Source: Centroscyllium fabricii
Lineage: Eukaryota
Assembly (NCBI GenBank): GCA_051313645.2
Contig: JBNRSN020000002.1
Span: 166,904,001 to 166,968,000, forward strand
Direction of reading: 5' to 3'
DNA: 64,000 bases
The notes under the pieces were generated by a model. That model saw nothing but the letters and a program-made list of their open reading frames with translations. It did no database searches and was not told where the DNA came from. The position numbers and the translations under genes are program-made. Below are positions 9,766-63,900 of this stretch, in pieces; position 1 is the first letter of the stretch; every line of letters starts with the position of its first letter.

Positions 9766-10630
9766 ACTAAGAGCTTTTGAAACTAACCAGCTACATTTAC
9801 ATTGTCTTTGAAAACATACAGGGGTTACATGTTTGACTGTGCAGCTGGCTGTTTGTCATGGTGTTTCCAGTACCCCATGCAAGTATCCATTGTTCCTTAT
9901 TTTGCTATTTGATTTCAAGACTACCTCTGTGCAATGCTATTCTTGAAATGATTCAGCACACAAAACCCTTCATCAGCCCCAGCAGTCCAGACACAACAGT
10001 AGTTCCAATTAGCATGAACTCTGACCCAGCAGAAATAAACCCACCCCTCAGTCCCCCAGCTACAGCAAGGTTGAAATGAAGGGCCCTCCATTATGACAGA
10101 AACAATAGTGACCACACAAATGATGGCAGATTAAACACACTACTCGAAAACCAAAGATGGCATGTGTAGTATCTGTAATTGTGGGCCATTAGCTGGAGTC
10201 CTTGTGCTCCAGAATCCACTCCCGTGTCTAAGGCGGTGATGAGAACACCCTACCGTCGTACTCCGGGTAATTGGAGTTGCGATACAGATCAGCCATGATC
10301 TAATTCAGTGGTGGGCAAAATGCGACCCACAGGCCATATCCAGTCTGCTGGACAGGACAGAAATAGAACACAAACTGGGAGAGGACAGACACAGTGCTGA
10401 TCTCCCTCTTTGGTAAGAGAATCGTGGAGATGAGCAGCCATGTCTCAACTCTAAAATGGATAGGGCGTATTTGAGTACCCAGTGCATTCTGGGTACAAAC
10501 ATTAAGGAGGCCCACAACTACCTTCTCAGGGTAACTATAGATTTGTAATAAATGCAGCCATGCCATATCCCAGGAAAAAAAATGCTATCACTTTCGATTT
10601 ACAGGAAGTCACTCCTGCATTTAACCAGTA

Positions 10631-11898
10631 CAGGTTGAGCACTGGTAATCCAGCACCCGATGGTCCAGCACCTTCAGTGGTCCGGCACGAATCGAAACCG
10701 GCGGTCTTCAGTTTGCAGAGCAGCCGCTTGGTGGCGCCACTGTTTCCCGCAATGGGTGGCTGAGCGCCAAAGGTGTCGGGTGTTTGGGTTGCTGCTTTTT
10801 TAGGTTTTGTAAGTGTTCTATCGCCGGGCTCCCTCCCGGGGAGTGTTCTACCCGCGCGCTCCGGGCCCCGGGGAGTGTTCTACCCGCGCGCTCCGGGCCC
10901 CGGGGAGTGTTCTACCCGCGCGCTCCGGGCCCCGGGGAGTGTTCTACCCGCGCGCTCCGGGCCCCGGGGAGTGTTCTACCCGCGCGCTCCGGGCCCCGGG
11001 GAGTGTTCTACCCGCGCGCTCCGGGCCCGGCGAGTGTTCTACCCGCGCGCTCCGGGGAGTGTTCTACCCGCGCGCTCCGGGCCCCGGGGAGTGTTCTACC
11101 CGCGCGCTCCGGGCCCCGGGGAGTGTTCTACCCGCGCGCTCCGGGCCCCGGGGAGTGTTCTACCCGCGCGCTCCGGGCCCCGGGGAGTGTTCTACCCGCG
11201 CGCTCCGGGCCCCGGGGAGTGTTCTACCCGCGCGCTCCGGGCCCCGGGGAGTGTTCTACCCGCGCGCTCCGGGCCCCGGGGAGTGTTCTACCCGCGCGCT
11301 CCGGGCCCCGGGGAGTGTTCTACCCGCGCGCTCCGGGCCCCGGGGAGTGTTCTACCCGCGCGCTCCGGGCCCCGGGGAGTGTTCTACCCGCGCGCTCCGG
11401 GCCCCGGGGAGTGTTCTACCCGCGCGCTCCGGGCCCCGGGGAGTGTTCTACCCGCGCGCTCCGGGCCCCGGGGAGTGTTCTACCCGCGCGCTCCGGGCCC
11501 CGGGGAGTGTTCTACCCGCGCGCTCCGGGCCCCGGGGAGTGTTCTACCCGCGCGCTCCGGGCCCCGGGGAGTGTTCTACCCGCGCGCTCCGGGCCCCGGG
11601 GAGTGTTCTACCCGCGCGCTCCGGGCCCCGGGGAGTGTTCTACCCGCGCGCTCCGGGCCCCGGGGAGTGTTCTACCCGCGCGCTCCGGGCCTCGGGGAGT
11701 GTTCTACCCGCGCGCTCCGGGCCCCGGGGAGTGTTCTACCCGCGCGCTCCGGGCCCCGGGGAGTGTTCTACCCGCGCGCTCCAGGCCCCGGGGAGTGTTC
11801 TACCCGTGCGCTCCTCCCGAACCTTCAGTGGTCCGGAATTTTCAGTGGTCCGGCACCGGCCTGGTCCCGAGGGTGCCGGATTACTGGTGCTCAACCTG
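10631..11898. mobile_element. TA-flanked Tigger-like MITE carrying an expanded minisatellite
   Basis: TA|CAGGTTGAGCACTGGTAATCC...GGATTACTGGTGCTCAACCTG|TA. Confidence 0.88.
10838..11812. repeat. 32-bp GC-rich minisatellite, about 30 units
   Basis: Unit GGGGAGTGTTCTACCCGCGCGCTCCGGGCCCC; irregular units near 11025-11056. Confidence 0.97.
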
Positions 11899-30234: not shown

Positions 30235-30930
30235 CTACTGTGTGGAGGACTGTTGATGGTTGATGATACAGCTCGTACTAACAGAGATCCAGCATGCTGA
30301 TTGCTCCCACTGAGCTGTCGTGGCCCTGTGTTAATAAGGAGGCTAGTTCAGTAGCAGCACATTATTGAATAAACACTTCTCTCCTTGCACATGATTTTTG
30401 AAGGTAATCTGGATAGAGTGGATAAATCCAACACTCAGATATGCACCGCCATCACCCAAGAGTGCTGGCTGTTATCTGCACTGCAGTCTGCCTTTGCAGA
30501 AGTGGCAATAGTAGTGCATCTGCAGTGGAAACCTCACTTACATACATAGGTCATAGACACAGTAGGAGCCCTTCTCCTGAATGCTGCTATGGAGACTAAA
30601 CTCTAAGATGCAGTTATGGCTGTTTCAATTCATTTGGAGAATTGTTATAGGCAACTATGGTGGAAGGATTACAAAATCATAAATCTAGAGTGTACGATCG
30701 AAGCAATGAGTTCCAGACGTGGAAAAATATTCCAGTCGCTGATATTGCCGTCCCTCACCCTGATGAGAACCAAACCAGCCCTTCAACTTGCTGCCTGTAG
30801 TCAATCATAATTGGTGAAAGATGGAAATAAGTCATGCAATGTATATAATAGTATTATTAAAAGCATTGGCTGTGATAAAAGATGAAATGTGTCAAGAAAA
30901 TATATTTGCACTGAAGAGTATTAAACTCAC

Positions 30931-31206
30931 CATTATAGTAAGCACATGCTGATGCTTGGTCTCATGGTCCAGCCTTTCAGCTGTAAAGAGAACTCCAGTA
31001 CCAGGATCCAGCCTAAATTTTTTCAGACTGCTTGGATCTGTGCTGCTTTGAAGAGTGTAAATCAACTTGTTCTTCTCATCTTCATCAGTGGCACTAACTT
31101 GCAGAATTATTGCATCAGGAATTGTGTCTTCTGGGATATTTACTTCATATTTTGGTTTTGAAAACTCAGGTCGATGGTCATTTGTATCAATCACTTTAAT
31201 GTATAC
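30931..31206 (-). CDS. FAT1: FAT1 exon (exon 8 equivalent)
   Basis: [22 protein letters not shown]...HQHVLTIM; cag/gtgagt; 276 nt. Confidence 0.95.
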
Positions 31207-31264
31207 CTGAAATTAAATAAAATGTTACATTTGACAACTGTAATTCCATTACATTTCTTTAGTA

Positions 31265-36214: not shown

Positions 36215-36590
36215 CTTCTATCAACGTCAGCTCATTCAAAACTCTGCTACCCATATCTTATGCTGCATTTTCCATCGCCTCGTCCTCGCTGACCTACATT
36301 GGTTCTTGGTTTCCCAAAGTCTCTAATTTAAAGCTCTGATCCTTGTGTTTAAATTGCTCCATAGCCTCAACGCTCCCTATCTCTAACTTCCTCCAGCCCA
36401 ACCTCTGGAATTCCCATCCCAAACCATTCTACCTCTCCACCTTCTCCTTTAAGACCTCCTTAAAACCTACCTTTTAGAACAAGCATTTCAATACTCCTCC
36501 TAATCTTTCCTTTGGCTTGGCCTCTGAATCTCCTTGGGATATTTTTCATCATTAAAAGTTCTACATATGATGTGCACGCTATACACAAGA
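36215..36590 (+). mobile_element. Decayed L2 LINE 3' fragment
   Basis: IQNSA, LHW and FKxLILVFK coding remnants; tttaagacctccttaaaacctacc end motif. Confidence 0.6.
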
Positions 36591-36752
36591 CTTTTAATAT
36601 ACCCTGTACTTGCAAGTTATTTTCACGGGTTTTTCCCAATCCCTGCCATAGCTTCAACATGAAGACCAATGGAAATCCTGGAAAAATGGTATAAACATTC
36701 ATTTACGCCATTTCTCCATAGTTTCCCGCGATCTTCCATTGAAGTAATGGCA

Positions 36753-38745
36753 GGAGCTGTGTGCTGAGAAACGCAGAGTCCAGCCAGCTGGGAGCCTGAG
36801 GCGCAGAAAAAGGACAGGTAACTTTCCTTCCAGGGGAGCTGTAACTTTCCTTCCAGGGGAGCTGAGCTAACGCTGCTTCAGGGGAGCTGAGCCAGGAGAG
36901 AAGGACAGGTAACTTTCCTTTCCTTCCAGGGGAGCTGAGCTAGCGTTGCTTCAGGGAAACGGAGCCAGGAGAGCTGAGCCAGCGCGGGCTTTTTTAAAAA
37001 GCCGTTCAGCAGCGTCGCCGAGGAGCGGGGGGCGGGACAAGTCTCTGCAAGTCTCGTGGGACTTTCTTTGCAGTATAAAAGGGGAGCTGTGTGCTGAGAA
37101 ACGCAGAGTCCAGCCAGCTGGGAGCCTGAGGCGCAGAAAAAGGACAGGTAACTTTCCTTCCAGGGGAGCTGTAACTTTCCTTCCAGGGGAGCTGAGCTAA
37201 CGCTGCTTCAGGGGAGCTGAGCCAGGAGAAAAGGACAGGTAACTTTCCTTTCCTTCCAGGGGAGCTGAGCTAGCATTGCTTCAGGGAAACGGAGCCAGGA
37301 GAGCTGAGCCAGCGCGGGCTTTTTTAAAAAGCCGTTCAGCAGCGTCGCCGAGGAGCGGGGGGCGGGACAAGTCTCTGCAAGTCTCGTGGGACTTTCTTTG
37401 CAGTATAAAAGGGGAGCTGTGTGCTGAGAAACGCAGAGTCCAGCCAGCTGGGAGCCTGAGGCGCAGAAAAAGGACAGGTAACTTTCCTTCCAGGGGAGCT
37501 GTAACTTTCCTTCCAGGGGAGCTGAGCTAACGCTGCTTCAGGGGAGCTGAGCCAGGAGAGAAGGACAGGTAACTTTCCTTTCCTTCCAGGGGAGCTGAGC
37601 TAGCGTTGCTTCAGGGAAACGGAGCCAGGAGAGCTGAGCCAGCGCGGGCTTTTTTAAAAAGCCGTTCAGCAGCGTCGCCGAGGAGCGGGGGGCGGGACAA
37701 GTCTCTGCAAGTCTCGTGGGACTTTCTTTGCAGTATAAAAGGGGAGCTGTGTGCTGAGAAACGCAGAGTCCAGCCAGCTGGGAGCCTGAGGCGCAGAAAA
37801 AGGACAGGTAACTTTCCTTCCAGGGGAGCTGTAACTTTCCTTCCAGGGGAGCTGAGCTAACGCTGCTTCAGGGGAGCTGAGCCAGGAGAAAAGGACAGGT
37901 AACTTTCCTTTCCTTCCAGGGGAGCTGAGCTAGCATTGCTTCAGGGAAACGGAGCCAGGAGAGCTGAGCCAGCGCGGGCTTTTTTAAAAAGCCGTTCAGC
38001 AGCGTCGCCGAGGAGCGGGGGGCGGGACAAGTCTCTGCAAGTCTCGTGGGACTTTCTTTGCAGTATAAAAGGGGAGCTGTGTGCTGAGAAACGCAGAGTC
38101 CAGCCAGCTGGGAGCCTGAGGCGCAGAAAAAGGACAGGTAACTTTCCTTCCAGGGGAGCTGTAACTTTCCTTCCAGGGGAGCTGAGCTAACGCTGCTTCA
38201 GGGGAGCTGAGCCAGGAGAGAAGGACAGGTAACTTTCCTTTCCTTCCAGGGGAGCTGAGCTAGCGTTGCTTCAGGGAAACGGAGCCAGGAGAGCTGAGCC
38301 AGCGCGGGCTTTTTTAAAAAGCCGTTCAGCAGCGTCGCCGAGGAGCGGGGGGCGGGACAAGTCTCTGCAAGTCTCGTGGGACTTTCTTTGCAGTATAAAA
38401 GGGGAGCTGTGTGCTGAGAAACGCAGAGTCCAGCCAGCTGGGAGCCTGAGGCGCAGAAAAAGGACAGGTAACTTTCCTTCCAGGGGAGCTGTAACTTTCC
38501 TTCCAGGGGAGCTGAGCTAACGCTGCTTCAGGGGAGCTGAGCCAGGAGAAAAGGACAGGTAACTTTCCTTTCCTTCCAGGGGAGCTGAGCTAGCATTGCT
38601 TCAGGGAAACGGAGCCAGGAGAGCTGAGCCAGCGCGGGCTTTTTTAAAAAGCCGTTCAGCAGCGTCGCCGAGGAGCGGGGGGCGGGACAAGTCTCTGCAA
38701 GTCTCGTGGGACTTTCTTTGCAGTATAAAAGGGGAGCTGTGTGCT
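36753..38745 (+). repeat. Six tandem 330-bp monomers plus 13 nt, each with GC box and TATA box
   Basis: Exact period 330; GGGGCGGG at 37029 and TATAAAA at 37074, recurring every 330 bp. Confidence 0.97.
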
Positions 38746-39062
38746 AAACCCGAAACACTACGTGGTAGTGTTTCCCACCCTTCCATCCTCCTCTAACCTT
38801 AGGGGGTTAGAGCGATTTTAAAAAAGGTAAGTTCAAATTATTTTATTTTCAGGAGCCCAACCTAGGTGGAAAGGGTTCCAGGACAGAGAAAAACCTTCAC
38901 AACAGGATCAAGGGACTGGTGAGTACTTTCCTCAAACTTTTCTAAAAACTACTAAAAGTAGTGGGATTCAGTAAATCTAAAAAGGAAACGAAGGGTACTT
39001 TATAGACCGGTCTAAAGTCAGAGTAGATTAAGTCTACTAGAACAAGGGATTTAAGATATAAA

Positions 39063-40022
39063 ATGGGAGACATGGCAGTGCAGGCCATCGCAGTCATATG
39101 CTCCACCTGTAATATGTGGGAATTCAGGGGCCCGGACGGGGCCCCTGAAGTACACGTATGCAGGAAATGCATCCATCTACAGATCTTAGCCGACCGCATG
39201 GCGGCGCTGGAGCTGCGGATGGAAGCATTATGGGGCGTAGACAGCGATGAGCGGGTCGTGGACAGCACGTTTGAGAGGGTGGTCACACCAAAGACTAGAG
39301 TAGACCAGATAGAAGGAAATTGGGTGACCACCAAGAGGAGTGCCAGAGTGAGGAAGGAAGTGCAGGGAACCCCTGTGGCCGTCCCCCTGTCCAACAGTTA
39401 TACCGCTTTGGATACTGTGGAGGGGGAGGACCTACCAGGGGAGGGCAGCAGCAGCCTACTTCCTGGCACTAGGGGTGCTGGGGCTGCCCAGAATGGGAGG
39501 GAAACTAGTGTGCCAGCAGTAGTAATAGGGGATTCAATCGTAAGGGGCACAGAGAGGCGGTTCTGCGGCCGCAGACGTGACACCAGGATGGTTACTTGCC
39601 TCCCTGGTGCCAGGGTCCGGGATGTCACGGATCGGCTGCAGGACATCTTGAGGGGGGAGGGGAACCAGGTAGAAGTTGTGGTCCACATTGGCACCAACGA
39701 CATAGGACAAAAGGGGGACGAGGTCCTGCAAAGAGAATTTAGGGAGCTGGGTAAAAAGCTAAAAAGCAGGACCCCAAAGGTTGTAATCTCTGGATTACTC
39801 CCAGTGCCACGAGCTAGTGAGTATAGGAACCGTAAGATAGAGCAGCTTAATTCGTGGCTAAGAAGTTGGTGTAGGAAGGAGGGTTTCAGCTTTTTGGACA
39901 ATTGGTCTTGCTTCTGGGGTAAGTGGAACCTGTACATGCAGGACGGGTTGCACCTGAACCGGAATGGGACCAATATCCTTGCGGGAAGGTTTGATAGTCG
40001 GGTTGGGGTGGGTTTAAACTAA
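39063..40022 (+). CDS. CR1 ORF1p: N-terminal Cys zinc finger/coiled coil plus SGNH/GDSL esterase domain
   Basis: CxxC...CxxC; VIGDSIVR, PGA, HIGTND and DGLHLN blocks; intact 319 aa. Confidence 0.93.
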   Translation: MGDMAVQAIAVICSTCNMWEFRGPDGAPEVHVCRKCIHLQILADRMAALELRMEALWGVDSDERVVDSTFERVVTPKTRVDQIEGNWVTTKRSARVRKEVQGTPVAVPLSNSYTALDTVEGEDLPGEGSSSLLPGTRGAGAAQNGRETSVPAVVIGDSIVRGTERRFCGRRRDTRMVTCLPGARVRDVTDRLQDILRGEGNQVEVVVHIGTNDIGQKGDEVLQREFRELGKKLKSRTPKVVISGLLPVPRASEYRNRKIEQLNSWLRSWCRKEGFSFLDNWSCFWGKWNLYMQDGLHLNRNGTNILAGRFDSRVGVGLN

Positions 40023-40061
40023 ATTGGCAGGGGGGGGGGGGGGACCCAGAGTGAAGGCATA

Positions 40062-42941
40062 ATGGGTAGGGGAATACAACCTAATAAAGGAAAGCAGACT
40101 AGACAGCAAAACAAGGTAGTATTAGGTCAGAGAATGAAAGGTATATATTTTAACGCAAGGAGTCTGACTAACAAGGTGGATGAGTTAAAGGTATTGGTTG
40201 ACTCATGGGAATATGATATAGTAGCTATCACGGAGACGTGGCTGAAGGAGGGGGCAGGAATGGCAGCTAAATATTCCGGGGTATAGAATTTTCAGGCGGG
40301 ACAGAGACGAGGGAAAAAGGGGAGGGGGGGTAGCGATACTGATTAAGGATTCAATCACAGCCATCAGGCGGGTCGACCTAATGGATGATTCCTCAAACGA
40401 GGCACTATGGGTGGAGGTAAAAAATAAAAAGGGGGGGGGGCACCTTACTGGGAGTATATTATAGACCACCAAACAGTAAAGGGGAGATGGAGGGTAAGAT
40501 ATGTGAGCAAATCACGAAGATAAGCGAAAATAACAAAGTAATAATATTAGGGGACTTTAATTTCCCCAACATCAACTGGGATTGTCAGAGTGTGAGGGGC
40601 ACGGAAGGTTCAGCATTCTTAAAATGCAGCCAAGAGAGTTTTTTGAAGCAATATGTTGGGTCACCCACAAGGGGGGGGGGCGGTACTAGACCTAATACTT
40701 GGGAACGAAGACGGGCAGATAGAGGAGGTAACAGTGGGGGAGCACTTCGGGGATAGCGACCACAATTCAGTTAGTTTCAAGATTGTAATGGAGAAGGATA
40801 AAAATGGACCAGGGGTAAAAGTACTAAACTGGGGGAAGGCGGATTTCATTAAAATTAGGCGCGATGTAGCCGCAGTAGATTGGGGCCATCTTCTCAGAGG
40901 AAGATCTGCATCAGAGCAGTGGGAGGCCTTCAGAGGGAAGGTCGGGAAGATACAGGAGGAACATGTTCCTGCAAAAATCAAGGGCGGGGGAGGTAAACAA
41001 AGGGAACCTTGGATGTCTAGGGATATATGTAAATTAATGAAGAAAAAAAGGGGGGCCTTCAATGAATATAAACGGCTAAAAACTGAGGAGGCGCTAGGGG
41101 AGTATAAGAAGTATAGGGGGGAATTAAAGAAGGAGATAAGAAAAGCCAAGAGGGGTCATGAGATTGCAATGGCCGGCAAAATCAAGGATAACCCTAAGGC
41201 ATTTTACAGTTATATAAAAAACAAAAGGATCACGAGGGAAAGAGTGGGGCCCATTAAGGACGATAGCGGAAAGTTGTGCGTCGAGCCCGAGGCGGTGGGG
41301 GAGGTACTAAACGAATTTTTCTCTTCAGTATTCACAAGAGAGAGGGACGGAACCGACATCGTAATCGGACAGAGTGTAGGGGGGGTAATTGAGGATATTA
41401 CCATTACAAGGGAAGAAGTACTAGAAATCTTGGGAAGCTTAAAGGTAGACAAATCACCAGGGCCGGACGCGATGTTCCCCAGGCTGCTGTTCGAGGCCAG
41501 GGAAGAGCTTGCGGGCCCCCTGTCTCAAATTTTCAGGTCCTCTCTCGCGTCAGGGGATGTACCCGAGGACTGGAGAACGGCTAATGTAGTACCCCTGTTT
41601 AAAAAGGGTAGTAGGGACAAACCGGGTAACTATAGGCCAATCAGTCTTACATCTGTAGTGGGGAAAGTAATGGAAAAAATTCTGAGGGACAAAATCAGTC
41701 TGCATTTGGAAAAGCAGGGTCTGATAAGGGATAGTCAACATGGCTTCGTCAAAGGTAAGTCGTGCCTAACTAATCTGTTGGAATTCTTTGAAGAGGTAAC
41801 AAAGAGGGTGGATGAAGGGAGTACTGTTGACGTGGTGTATATGGACTTCAGCAAGGCTTTTGATAAAGTCCCACATAGGAGACTAATAACAAAGGTTAAA
41901 GCACATGGGATACAGGGCAACTTGGCACAGTGGATTCAAAATTGGCTGGGGGATAGGAGACAAAGGGTAATGGTAGAGGGCTGCTTCTGTGACTGGAAAC
42001 CAGTAACCAGCGGTGTCCCCCAAGGATCGGTTTTGGGACCCTTACTGTTTCTAGTATACATCAATGATTTGGACATGGGAGTAGGGGGTACGATCAGCAA
42101 ATTTGCTGACGATACGAAAATTGGAAGGGTGGTAAATAACGATGAAGATAGTAAAAGGCTCCAGGAAGATATAAATGTAATGGTTAGTTGGGCAGAAAAA
42201 TGGCAAATGGAGTTCAACCCAGAGAAATGCGAGGTCATACAATTCGGCAGACCAAATGGGGTAAGGGAATATACCATGAACAAAAAAACGTTAGGTAGGA
42301 CCGAGGAACAGAGGGACCTTGGGGTACAGGTGCACAGCTCCCTGAAGGTCGCTGGACACGTAAACAAGGTGGTTAAGAAGGCATATGGAATTCTGGCCTT
42401 TATTAACCAGGGCATAGTATACAAAAGTAGGGAGGTAATGTTAAACTTGTATAACACGCTGGTGAGACCTCAGCTGGAGTACTGTGTGCAGTTCTGGTCA
42501 CCGCACTTCAGGAAGGATGTGGTTGCCCTGGAGAGGGTGCAGAGAAGGTTTACCAGGATGATACCTGGTCTGGGGGACTTATGCTACGAGGAAAGGCTGG
42601 ACAGGCTGGGGTTGTTTGCCTTGGAGAAGAGAAGATTGAGGGGTGACATGATTGAGGTGTACAGGATCATGAGAGGACACGATAGGGTGGATAAAGGGGC
42701 ATTGTTTCCCTTGGTGGGAGAGTCAAGTACTAGGGGACATAGATTCAAGATTAGGGGGGGGAGGTTTAGGGGGGAGGTAAGGAGAAATTTCTTTACTCAG
42801 AGGGTGGTGGAAGTGTGGAACTCCCTGCCTGTAAGGGTGGTGGAGGCAGAAACCATCGCAACATTTAAAAAATATTTGGACCAGCACATGAAGGACCGTA
42901 ACATACAGGGTTATGGGCCAGGTGCGGGCAAATGGGGTTAG
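40062..42941 (+). CDS. CR1 ORF2p: APE endonuclease plus reverse transcriptase (three +1 shifts in poly-G runs as assembled)
   Basis: NARSL, ITETWL, YRPP, GDFN, SDH; PGPD, YRPISL, QHGF, DFSKAFD, PQGS, FADD; last 762 codons uninterrupted. Confidence 0.92.
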
Positions 42942-44401
42942 TATAGTGAGGAGTTTCCTGGGCCGGTGCGGACTGGATGGGCCGAATGGCCTTTATCCGC
43001 ACTGTAAAGTTTCTATGATTCTATGATTGGGAAACTTCTGCAAAAATTCTACCCAGCTACATAAATTTTAAAATGGCTCCAATTATTTTAACCCCACTTG
43101 AAGCACCATTCCCCATTCAATGGAGGAGTTCACTGGCCTGCTCTCCTCTCTTCCCCGTCCCACCAAGGTCTCTGTCCATGCTACAAAAATGTTCCATCAC
43201 ATTTGAGAAACTATCTGGCGTTGGCTCAGAATCTTTCCAGAAGGTACTTTCCAGATAGGTGTGAACCAAGCTCTGCCCTTCAACAGCACAAAATGCCAAT
43301 GTGTTAATGTACTAAGTTACTGCATTATCTTTAGAAGTCTGCAAATTGTTCACTGCCATCTTACTGCTTCTTTTCTGTAGTAATCTATTGGTAGCCCTGC
43401 AATGTTTTATTTCAGCAACATAACAAGTTTTATTGGCAGCTTTGAGACTGACTAATTCCCATTTCACATTTATAAAATATAAAACTCAAATAGTCCGCAT
43501 TCCCACTATGAGAACTATTATCAGATAAAATCCAAAAGGCACGAACAGAAAATCTCCTCTTAGGATCTTTCTGGCTCTAAAACCATTAATGAAATCTCAA
43601 AAATTGTATTAAGTATGATTCATTGCACTCTCGGGAAAAATAAATAACCTTTCAATCTACAAGTCTGAGCATTGCTACTCACTATTACTTCAGAGATGGA
43701 TCTTAAGAGTTTCAGTTCAGTGATGGTATTGAAATTGAACTCTGTTTGGTACTGTAGGAATTTCTCATCATAAATAAAGATTGCAAGTTCCATGCTTGAA
43801 CATGGATATTACACTTTCCAGGTCATTTTATGTGCATGTTTAAAATTCCCATTAATAACAGACTATTTGAATTTTCCCAAATCCTTAGATATGGCAGACA
43901 ATTAATCAATTGGAAATCTGGTGGTCTAATTTTTTTTGAATGTTGTACAGTACTTTCATTGTGTAACTTGCAAAGCATCCCCCCAAAAAAACAAAAAATC
44001 TTGTGCAACTCAGCAACCATCATAACTAGATCTGTGCACATAATTATTTTACTGCAGAAAACAAAAAGTATCCATTATAGCTTTTATATTATTTCAGAAG
44101 ACATTAACTGAAGAATTTTCACACTGTATGCCATATTCAAAACTATAAACTGCAGCAGCATGGTGAGAAATGACATGCTATCGCTAATTTATAAGTTGCA
44201 AGTCGTGTGAATAAACAACTGAAATAGACAAAGAAGCAGAAGATTAATCTTTCACCAGAAAGAAGTTCAATGTTGAAAATGTTATACGGCAATAAACTAA
44301 TAACTTCAAAATGAAAATCCTGTTTTGCAACACTGATGGCTAAAAGAACTAAAGCAAATATCCTTTCCCGAATCCAAGTCCTACATCAGGAATTCAATTA
44401 C

Positions 44402-44541
44402 CTGAGTGCTGATGGACATTGTTCCATCTGTTGCCTCCACTGTCAAGTTGTAATTTGATTTCTGTTCTGCATCAAGTGGTCTAGCAACAATGATGGTTCC
44501 ACTACCTTTGTCCACATCAAATCGGCTGTCATAGTTGCCAC
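44402..44541 (-). CDS. FAT1: FAT1 exon (exon 7 equivalent), absent from ORF track
   Basis: Hand translation [46 protein letters not shown]; cag/gtaatt; 140 nt. Confidence 0.95.
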
Positions 44542-44872
44542 CTGGGTTTAAGAATATGAAAAAGTAGATATAAAAAACTGATTTTGCTCAGCTATCAAAT
44601 TGTATGTAAATTAAAATAAAATTGATCTTGTTTCACTGAGCATGCAAGAGGTGAATTTTGTCCAATGTACCTTCAGTAGAAAAACTGACAAAAATTCAAC
44701 CCACCATTCTTTCCTAACAATTTTAAGTCAATGCTGATTTTGTTTCTTTTTGTTTAATGAGGATCTTTAGAGAAATGGAAGGCTGTTTGTTTTAACCAGT
44801 GCTTCCACAGTGTCAGAACCACACTTTATTTCCACAGTTAATAAGAGAGCAGAGCATTATGAAATTTACAAT

Positions 44873-60998: not shown

Positions 60999-63900
60999 AT
61001 AGTATTTGTTTAATTTCCATACCATTTCCTCATTCCCCATTATAATTTCTCCTGTCTCAGCCTGTAAGGGACCCACATTTACTTTTGCTAATCTTTTCCT
61101 ATTTACATACCTATAGAAGCATTTACAGTCTGTTTTTATGTCTTTCACTAGTTTACTCTCATTCTATTTTCCCTTTCTTTATCCTCCTTTGTTGAATTCT
61201 AAAATCCTCCTAATTGTCAGGCTTACTACTCTTTTTGGCAACATTATAAACCCTTTCCTTTGATCTAATACTATCTTTAATTTCTCCTTAACCACGGTTG
61301 GACCACTTTTCCTGTGGGGTTTTTGTGCCTTAAAGGAATGTATATTTGTTGTAAATTATGTATTAATTCTTTAAATGCAAGCCATTGCTTCTCTACCATT
61401 ATACCTTTTAATGTCATTTCCCAATCTACCTTAGGCAACTCGCCCCTCATACCTACGTAGTTTGCTTTGTTTAGATTTAAGATCCCAGTTTCGGATTTAA
61501 CTAAATCACTTTCAAACTCAATATAAAATTTCATCATATTATGGTCACTCTTCCCTAAAGACCCCTTTACTACAAGGTTATTAATTAACCCTTTCTCATT
61601 GCTCAATGCTAGATCTAAAATAGCCTGTTCAGACATTGTTTCCTCAGCATACTGATCTAGAAAACTACCTTGTATACTTTCCAAGAATTTGTCCTCCATA
61701 CTATTACTGCAAATTTGGTTTGCCCAGTCTATATGTAGATTAAAGTCCATGATTACTGCATTACCCTTGTTATATGCACCTCTAATTTCCTGATTTATAC
61801 TCTGCTCTACATTACAATTACTATTTGGGGGCCTATAAACAACTCCCAGCAATGATTTTTGCCCCTTGCTGTTTCTTAGCTCCACCCAAACTGATCTACT
61901 TCTTGATTTTCAGAGCCAAGATCCTTTCTCTCCACTGTCTGTATCCCATCCTTTATCAGGGCTACCCCACCCCCTTTTCCATTTTGCCTATCTCTTCCAA
62001 AAGTTAAGTATCGATAATATTTAGTTCCCAACCGTGGCCACTTTGCAACCACGTCTCCATTATGGCGACTAGATCAAACCTGTGAATTTCTATCTGCGCT
62101 ATTAATTCATCTATTTTGTTGCGAATACTTCACGCATTCAGATATAGTATGAACTATTTCAATTTTCCCCCTGATGTCAGCTTAGTCACTGATGCCTTAT
62201 TACCTTTGTTACTCTCTCTGTCCCTTCCTGGCCCACTCTGCTTATTTTTACCCAAAACTCTACACTGCCTTGACATTTCTCTCGCTGCTTTGAAATTTAC
62301 TTCCTGAATCCTCCCACCCCCACTTCATTAGTTTAAAGCCCTGTCTACTGCCCTAGTTATTCAGTTTGCCAGGACTCTGGTCCCAGCCCGGTTTAAGTGG
62401 AGCCCATCCCAATGGAAAAGCTCCCTCTTTCCCCAGTACTGGTGCCAGTGCCCCATGAACTGAAACCCCTTCCTCCCACACCACTTTCAGCCACGCATTT
62501 AAACCTCTAATTTGTTCGTCCCAATGCCAATTTGCGTGTGGCGCAGGTAACAATCCAGAGATTATTGCCTTTTGAGGTTCTGCTTTTTAATTTGGATCTT
62601 AGCTCCTCAAACTCCCTCAGCAGAACTTCATTCCTAGTTCTAACTATGTCGTTGGTTCCTACGTGGACCACAACAACTGGGTCCGGGTCCTCCCACTCCA
62701 AGTTCTTCTCCAGCCTCGAGGAGATGTCTTTAACCCGGGTACCGGGCAGGCAACAGTACCTTCGGAACTCTCGGTCGCAGCTGCAGAGAACAGTATCAAT
62801 CGCCCTGATTATACTGTCCCCTACCACAAATACATTCCCTTTCAATACCCCCACTTAAATGGCCTCCTGAACTGTGGTGCCATGGTCAGTTTGTTTATCC
62901 ATCCCGCAGGCTTTTCCCTCATCCACACAGGCAGCAAGAACCTCACACCTGTTGGACAAGGGCAAAGGCCGAGTCTCCTCCAGCACTGCACCTGGGGTCC
63001 CCTTATCTGCCTGAGTTGCAGTCACACCCTCCTGTCCTGACCACTAACCAGACCTGTACCACTACCTAACCTAAGGGGTGTGACTGCCTCCTGGATCAAA
63101 GTGTCCACGTAACTCTCTCCCCCCCCCCCCCCACCCCCCCCACCCCCCCCACCCCCGGTACCCTGTAATGTCTGCACCTCAGACTCCAGTTCAAAAACTC
63201 TGAGCTGAAGTTCCTCAAGGTGCAAGCACTTATTGTAAATGTGGTTGTCCAGCATCACAATGTTCTCCACAAACTCCCACATGCTGCAGTTGCGGCACAC
63301 CACCTGCACGGCCATCCCTGTATGACCTTGTTTTATTGAATTAAACTTGTAATTAGGTAACTTAGTTTACAGTGTAGTTTCTTGACTAGTTACTTGATCT
63401 AGATTAAGTTAAAGGTACTGCAATTAAATATCTACCTGTAACACAAAGCACTACAAGTAGTGTAGGCAAAAAGTTACAACTCTTACCCCCTCGTCTCTGA
63501 ATTTCCACTCTTCCCAAATTCTCAAACAAAACACTCTGTTCAAGTCCACTCCATTTAAGACCGCTCTGTGCAAACCGCTCTGTCTTCTGCAGAAATGCTT
63601 ACTTTTATACTTCAAAAATGTAATGTTTTTCATTTCCAGACACAAAGGCATTCAGGGCATTTTTCAATTTACACTCAAAGGAGGTTGACTTTTCTTCTCC
63701 TTTAATCCTTCTGCCTAACTCCCACCCCGGTCAAGCCACGTGTTGTGGCGGCACGCCCACTGGGACACCGAATCCGCCACGGGAACTCCGCGGAGCAGAG
63801 CCCCGCTCATCCGGGTGACGCGATGATGTCACCACGTCTGCCGGCGCGCTGACGTCACCAACGGCGGGCAGTTTAAATATGCTTGTTGCGAGTGGTTCAC

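Follow-up and report, generated by a model that had tools for sequence, protein, structure and literature searches.

A tandem 5' array with a GC box and TATA box in every unit, possibly a renewable promoter, in a young CR1 retrotransposon within an intron of shark FAT1

It has long been asked how a LINE retains its promoter when it is copied in a way that sheds sequence from its 5' end. In elements of other clades, namely Drosophila HeT-A and the A-modules of Dictyostelium TRE5-A, an upstream repeat gives the promoter for the sequence that follows it, with HeT-A drawing its promoter from the 3' end of a neighbouring whole element. A further layout is that of the mouse L1 subfamilies L1Md A, Tf and Gf (PMC9022269, PMC6454616, PMC5381506; additional sources for the present comparison are PMC3747384, PMC8665684 and PMC4245944), in which tandem near-identical monomers are followed by a tether of approximately 250-380 bp and then by ORF1. 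In this literature, mouse L1 5' ends are described as clustering at fixed monomer positions, spare monomers are argued to preserve activity despite 5' loss, and the arrays are said to grow either stepwise or by unequal crossing-over, the mechanism being debated and re-expansion of the array remaining unresolved even in mouse. As for CR1 elements, PMC2734521 reports that the chicken CR1 5' UTR (CR1-B/F) drove a reporter and that turtle and pufferfish CR1 5' UTRs carry 32-bp direct repeats; its description of the CR1 promoter cites E boxes and Sp1, while the word TATA is absent from that text. The 2026 survey by Stuart et al. (PMC13343379), which puts the family group at 22-34% of elasmobranch genomes, mentions in the legend of its Fig. 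4 that some ORF1-less CR1-group elements have species-specific subunits of 100-500 bp, numbering 1-5, close to the 5' UTR; its main text gives these subunits no function, and the words promoter, monomer and tandem are absent from it. Given these precedents (ORF1-less subunits and turtle and pufferfish repeats), the view in the first-pass annotation of this DNA that monomeric 5' arrays are unrecorded for CR1 cannot be upheld. For shark CR1 elements in particular, no study of monomeric or TATA-type promoters was found in literature whose coverage was thin in subscription journals, in the original turtle CR1, HER1 and ZfL2 reports and in Repbase reports.

The element described here lies in a window of 64 kb, by which we mean the whole stretch of DNA that was analysed, and its features are collected in Table 1. 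Its 5' array, reported by Tandem Repeats Finder at 36753-38745 with a period of 330 and 6.0 copies, consists of units of which the first, third and fifth are identical, while the second, fourth and sixth depart from them solely by one G to A change each at positions 148 and 193 of the unit, such that A units carry G,G at 36900/36945 and B units A,A at 37230/37275. At a period of 660, direct comparison gives zero mismatches up to 38745, and the six 330-bp units with two linked sites in exact ABABAB order, as first annotated, are thereby confirmed. Another 13 nt match beyond the six units (38733-38745); counted from the tether, the array comprises six complete units and the final 10-13 nt of a seventh. 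Within each unit, sub-repeats of 22-31 nt precede the GC box and TATAAAA. The difference at site 193 is a change of CG to CA, and a paralogue inside the unit retains CG. The array has a GC content of 56.7% and a CpG observed/expected ratio of 0.53, compared with 0.50 for the 64-kb window, and is no CpG island by that ratio. Strict alternation has a chance of 0.10 for a random order of three A and three B units, or of 0.031 for independent draws, and is only modestly improbable; the ABABAB order itself is ordinary tandem-array behaviour. The unit was also considered as a structured RNA and rejected (fold z +1.4, 90/100 shuffles equally stable), and since the single Rfam match in 36500-43300 is at chance level (E 0.3, below gathering), there is no known ribozyme or structured RNA in that interval. 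A second copy of this CR1 family is missing from the 64-kb window, and a scan for family members in a collection of genome contigs yielded no LINE, its matches being 3 bacterial SGNH proteins at 26-27%.

Table 1. Coordinates of the CR1 element, its 5' array and the surrounding host features in the window
Feature	Position	Strand	Remarks
FAT1 exon downstream of host intron	30928..31209	-	98% to Pristiophorus FAT1 aa 1469-1562
Old host palindrome (MITE-like): left arm, start of right arm	36600..36754	.	CR1 sits in right arm
Six 330-bp units, order A-B-A-B-A-B (660-bp dimer x3)	36753..38732	+	
Unit starts in array	36753, 37083, 37413, 37743, 38073, 38403	+	direct comparison
Last TATA box	38724..38731	+	22 nt before hairpin motif; positional counterpart of relatives' AT-rich box (6/10)
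Spacer (13 nt) between TATA and hairpin motif	38733..38745	+	same spacer position in relatives
Tether, unique, 317 nt, without ATG	38746..39062	+	splice-donor-like sites at 38824 and 38918
Conserved 5' motif: 10-bp hairpin (38752-38774), then C-rich tract	38746..38798	+	
ORF1, 319 aa, open	39063..40022	+	two CxxC motifs and SGNH esterase (GDS, GTND, DGLH motifs)
ORF2, endonuclease and reverse transcriptase	40137..42941	+	RVT_1 E 2e-35; Exo_endo_phos_2 E 3e-8, separate frames
3' UTR: hairpin and CR1 octamer tail, no poly(A)	42942..43028	+	last 4 nt common with target
FAT1 exon upstream of host intron	44399..44542	-	98% to Pristiophorus FAT1 aa 1423-1470

In layout, the element resembles the mouse L1 subfamilies, and the first-pass annotation was right in this respect: an array of 6 x 330 bp is followed by a tether and ORF1, there is a partial monomer at the 5' end, and neighbouring monomers differ from each other at 2-3 nt. 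That said, the mouse elements belong to the L1 clade, end in a poly(A) tail and have monomers of approximately 200 bp with CpG-island character and, in Tf and Gf, a YY1 site near their 5' ends, whereas the present CR1 has 330-bp units of low CpG ratio with a TATA and a GC box, whose promoter activity is putative, and the YY1 core motif is absent from both strands of the unit. By its layout the element may thus work like a mouse L1 monomeric promoter, yet by clade, CpG content and YY1 it is no member of that group. With the arrays in the Fig. 4 legend of Stuart et al. it shares the CR1 group and a unit length within 100-500 bp, but it differs from what is said there in its open esterase ORF1, in having six units as opposed to 1-5, and in its two-unit higher order. 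It likewise departs from the chicken, turtle and pufferfish CR1 elements, for which PMC2734521 describes short repeats and E boxes and neither a long monomer array nor a TATA.

Both the coding region and the 3' end allow the element to be assigned to CR1, namely by its ORF1, ORF2 and tail, and the hairpin motif of its tether matches consensuses that the survey (PMC13343379, supplement) labels LINE/CR1. The cited literature defines the CR1 3' tail by the octamer ATTCTRTG and the lack of poly(A). At 43010-43025 the octamer tail holds one exact ATTCTATG and one variant, preceded by a predicted 3' UTR hairpin of modest stability (z -1.72, 14/200 shuffles equally stable). ORF1 matches the Lipase_GDSL_2 profile (E 1e-16) and the 'ORF1-encoded protein' of PDB entry 4c1b (E 2e-30), which we take to be the ZfL2-1 esterase, and its best named matches are elasmobranch, at up to 59%. 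The last 764 codons of ORF2 are open, and three frameshifts near 40250, 40431 and 40671, each in a G run, split its endonuclease part across frames; these are either lesions or errors of consensus or assembly. Endonuclease and reverse transcriptase do not share the one open frame that an intact CR1 has, and the copy as assembled cannot make ORF2. As the ORF1 matches P0027, P0075, P0076, P0084 and P0006 indicate, the ORF1 sequence of CR1 also occurs in annotated host isoforms of other species, namely RPS24 in Pristis and TMEM204 and ABHD14A-like in Mobula, which suggests exonised CR1 5' regions; one match, labelled Pseudomonas aeruginosa, is probably contamination.

As regards the insertion, the reverse complement of the left arm of the host palindrome matches the 5' flank as far as 36754, and the alignment resumes in the 3' flank at approximately 43025; the palindrome itself folds stably (z -4.4, 0/200 shuffles equally stable), with no convincing further copies in the 64-kb window. 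Since its arm is split by the CR1, the whole array lies inside a clean insertion. At the junctions, the last 4 nt of the tail are also target sequence and the first 2-3 nt of the 13-nt repeat are also host sequence. The target-site duplication amounts to 0-3 nt and is inseparable from microhomology; the LINE insertion literature gives short duplications with a peak at 3-5 bp. The overlap of the 5' end with host sequence fits a microhomology truncation, and for the esterase LINE ZfL2-1 in DT40 cells joining by microhomology or extra nucleotides is reported as the sole mode seen, with 2/33 inserts full length. The host gene is FAT1, on the minus strand, at 94-95% identity to Heptranchias and Pristiophorus, and the CR1 lies antisense in its 13-kb intron between the two exons of Table 1; the earlier placement of the element inside FAT1, antisense to the gene, is borne out by the domain matches of the ORFs and by these flanking exons. 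These observations show a young esterase-ORF1 CR1 of a squalomorph-type shark that entered a FAT1 intron by clean, antisense target-primed reverse transcription. Sense transcripts of the array would be antisense to FAT1 and would head for the upstream exons of that gene. The minus strand of the unit holds no TATAWAW, poly(A) signal or donor-like word, and therefore gives no sign of truncation of the FAT1 transcript; any effect of the array on FAT1 is a matter of speculation.

Every unit carries a GC box (GGGCGG) at unit positions 278-283 and a TATAAAA at 322-328, just as the first-pass annotation had it for the close of each unit. Canonical TATA promoters follow the consensus TATAWAWR with an upstream GC box, and in vertebrates transcription starts 28-33 nt from the first T. 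Unit positions 322-329 fit this consensus with the GC box upstream, in promoter order, and TATAWAWR arose in 0/5000 dinucleotide shuffles of the unit, although this was a post hoc test. Each internal TATA is followed by pyrimidine-purine steps at distances of 29 and 31 nt, and the last one by steps at 28 and 33 nt; within the unit, the steps at the 28-33 nt spacing correspond to positions 21-23. The stretch from GC box to TATA also contains, at unit positions 288-313 (37040-37065), a near-palindrome that presumably resembles a BANP-type site together with an NF-kB-like word. The element's own 5' end was earlier thought to lie where a TATA would set the start. However, it sits 9-12 nt past the first base of a TATA, as opposed to 28-33, and is therefore not a TATA-set start. 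What is more, of the direct repeat claimed at the 5' end, all 13 nt do match 38733-38745, but the first 2-3 nt are shared with the host palindrome, which leaves 10-11 nt specific to the element and places its specific 5' end at 36755-36756. The chance that a random truncation lands in the interval between a TATA and its start is approximately 7-10% (1/15 GGA sites, 3/39 GG sites, 34/330 nt), so the coincidence is not fully explained, and a 5' end within 13 nt of the register of the array has a chance of approximately 4%. We infer that this copy was truncated within a seventh unit and that its 5' end is no start site.

Downstream of the last TATA, the start that this box would set falls at the hairpin motif of the tether, which is present as a single copy in the 64-kb window; the fold of 38746-38815 has a z of -2.96, with 2/200 shuffles equally stable. 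Splice-donor-like words on the sense strand, found at 36816-36821 and 36907-36912 (and in every unit) as well as at 38824 and 38918, number 4 in the 660 nt of last unit and tether, against approximately 0.6 per kb outside the element; those of each unit precede pyrimidine-rich acceptor-like words, and many shark CR1s have such donor-like words at their 5' ends. To give them a function related to U1 would be a guess. Back-splicing was considered as an origin of the 660-bp period and discarded on inspection, as a circle from donor-like to acceptor-like word would shorten one unit, while all six are 330 bp long.

How does this 5' end compare with those of other shark CR1 elements? The survey supplement (PMC13343379) gives the first 400 nt of each consensus, and all counts that follow refer to that stretch. 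In it, the CR1 rows of four sharks, 87 in total (24 Squalus, 16 Rhincodon, 23 Scyliorhinus and 24 Carcharodon), were judged by eye; the 45 rows of at least 4100 nt were counted, and the 42 shorter rows, mostly beginning inside ORFs, were left out, with doubtful cases uncounted. Clear 5' tandem units were seen in 14 of these 45 near-full-length consensuses (SquAca_CR1-7 and -15b; RhiTyp_CR1-2a and -7; ScyCan_CR1-6, -7a, -7b, -11b and -19; CarCar_CR1-2, -4, -5, -7a and -23), several of which also show the start of ORF1, as well as in 1/7 Pristis rows and 0/6 Callorhinchus CR1 rows. Unit length and sequence vary freely between families, from 28 to 330 bp, as in ScyCan_CR1-6, with at least 2.6 units of approximately 154 bp, and CarCar_CR1-7a, with approximately 6 units of 43 bp, and a motif search of these first 400 nt found no family with the present 330-bp unit. 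The hairpin and C-rich motif, in turn, recurs by eye in 12 rows from the 4 sharks, among them SquAca_CR1-7, ScyCan_CR1-7a, -11a and -16, RhiTyp_CR1-2a, -7, -8 and -11, and CarCar_CR1-2 and -23. Several of these relatives have upstream tandem units and, as here, donor-like words in units and tether, but their units measure approximately 76-131 bp where measurable and are unrelated in sequence to the 330-bp unit. Two of the 12 rows start inside the motif; in 6 of the 10 that remain comparable upstream, an AT-rich box stands 20-21 nt before the hairpin motif (22 nt in the present CR1), a spacing of 20-22 nt that is kept across three other shark species, while in the other 4 the box is missing, and a textbook TATA occurs solely in SquAca_CR1-7. 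The six box-bearing relatives have just one box each, placed downstream of their repeats, whereas in the present CR1 the repeated unit includes both box and spacer. As the position of the spacer is matched in these relatives, the 13-nt repeat is, on this comparison by eye, the ancestral spacer between box and hairpin.

The comparison of consensuses thus shows 5' arrays to be, as far as such sequences reveal, a trait of the shark CR1 lineage, and the constant distance of the AT-rich box from the hairpin in 6/10 relatives favours a promoter role. Tandem 5' units are known for the CR1 group, but the survey text mentions them only for ORF1-less elements; the present data suggest that monomeric, possibly TATA-driven promoters may be widespread in ORF1-bearing shark CR1s. 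In the supplement of the same survey, the consensuses CalMil_L2-1 (chimaera), TacAcu_L2-1 (echidna), AciRut_CR1-1 (sturgeon) and AllMis_CR1-9 (alligator) likewise show tandem units at the 5' end or words resembling a TATA close to it. In the window itself, an older, decayed CR1 on the minus strand (63640-58590), broken up by other repeats, has no long array and resembles SquAca_CR1-17a and -6c by eye. It carries TATAAAAG at 63609, 294 nt before its ORF1 ATG (339 in the present CR1), a word that occurs 6 times in the 62 kb outside the array, on both strands.

On balance we lean towards the following joint reading, with considerable room for error: a young esterase-ORF1 CR1 whose array acts as a renewable promoter, which underwent recent block duplications of 660 bp and was truncated at its 5' end in a seventh unit. 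The order of the units bears directly on its second part, as the two linked markers per unit allow the A/B order across genomic copies to separate single-unit jumping from block duplication. In a toy simulation starting from AB, ABABAB was obtained in 0/200000 runs when the 5' unit was re-copied, in 0/200000 runs when single units were duplicated in place, in 3.3% with random 5' addition, and in 27%, as the commonest outcome, with block duplication. The first-pass annotation had proposed that lost monomers are restored by template jumping at the 13-nt repeat or, alternatively, by copying a 660-nt unit; in the simulation the former yields runs of A or B, and the latter is the option that fits the observed order. 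A start just after the TATA at the 13-nt repeat, with monomers restored singly by jumping there, does have in its favour the 5' end close to the register of the array and the clustering of mouse L1 5' ends at fixed monomer positions. However, we find it hard to credit: apart from the simulated orders, the distance of 9-12 nt is far below the vertebrate spacing, 2-3 nt of the repeat are host sequence, and a cDNA end would presumably find a better pairing partner in an entire neighbouring unit of 330 nt than in a stretch of 13 nt. A less remote, though still unlikely, explanation is that the family has 1-2 units and that the six-unit order arose here by expansion after insertion or by the assembler unrolling a 660-bp cycle. 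The three 660-bp copies without any difference agree with this, as do the three G-run frameshifts in ORF2 and the 14 G/C runs of at least 9 nt in the window, which hint at an imperfect consensus in repeats, and the 13-nt terminal repeat could seed duplication of a whole dimer in place. Against it, the consensuses of relatives such as ScyCan_CR1-6 and CarCar_CR1-7a hold multi-unit arrays, each of the 10 listed FAT1 segments aligns in a single frame at 92-98%, and A and B keep their phase, for which sites at least 285 nt apart must stay linked. Were this explanation true all the same, the A-B pair and its motifs would remain, and only the copy number would be affected.

The promoter role itself might also be questioned, in that the array could be an unstable passenger or an enhancer only, the promoter being internal, at the tether's hairpin and C-rich motif, and the TATA incidental. 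In the consensuses the hairpin is kept in 12 rows while the AT-rich box is missing in 4/10, units differ freely in length and sequence between families, and the published accounts of the CR1 promoter name E boxes and Sp1 and not TATA (PMC2734521). Yet the conserved spacing between box and motif in other sharks, the promoter order of GC box and TATA in each unit and the failure of shuffles to produce such a TATA speak against an incidental box, and we regard an exclusively internal promoter as rather improbable. A renewable upstream promoter is, in our judgement, the most likely role of the array. Namely, each unit would supply sub-repeated factor sites, a GC box and a TATA starting transcription approximately 30 nt downstream; this start would fall within the following unit, except that the last box would set it at the conserved hairpin. 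Since the start lies downstream of the box, every round of copying would lose at least one box, and spare units would preserve the activity of daughter copies, an argument also made for mouse L1. The order ABABAB, in turn, would reflect history and not design: one older duplication may have given two units, which then acquired the two site differences (one by CpG decay), and two very recent block duplications of the 660-bp pair may have followed, through unequal exchange, slippage or a template switch over two units. These may have taken place in the source element, in the course of insertion or later, or may be the work of the assembler. The 5' end would then have arisen by truncation within the seventh unit, joined through 2-3 nt of microhomology. 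We can only tentatively, and against our own expectation, extend this to a general scheme in which shark CR1s have an external TATA-type promoter in self-renewing units, hairpin and splice donors mark the 5' end, and the reverse transcriptase re-copies the 660-nt block in one insertion. If such re-copying were true, the marked units would record a mechanism of renewal still unresolved for mouse L1.

A few other features of the window may be mentioned. At 10835-11814 there is a GC-rich minisatellite with a 32-bp unit, 30.9 copies and 97% matches; by eye it is enclosed in an element whose terminal inverted repeats are located near 10630 and 11900. The G or C runs of at least 9 nt reach up to 24 nt, three of the 14 falling in the present CR1, and may reflect over-calling of homopolymers. 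Finally, a GC-rich stretch at 63760-63900 on the plus strand, with a CRE-like palindrome and an AT-rich box, is possibly, as judged by eye, the 5' end of another element leaving the window.
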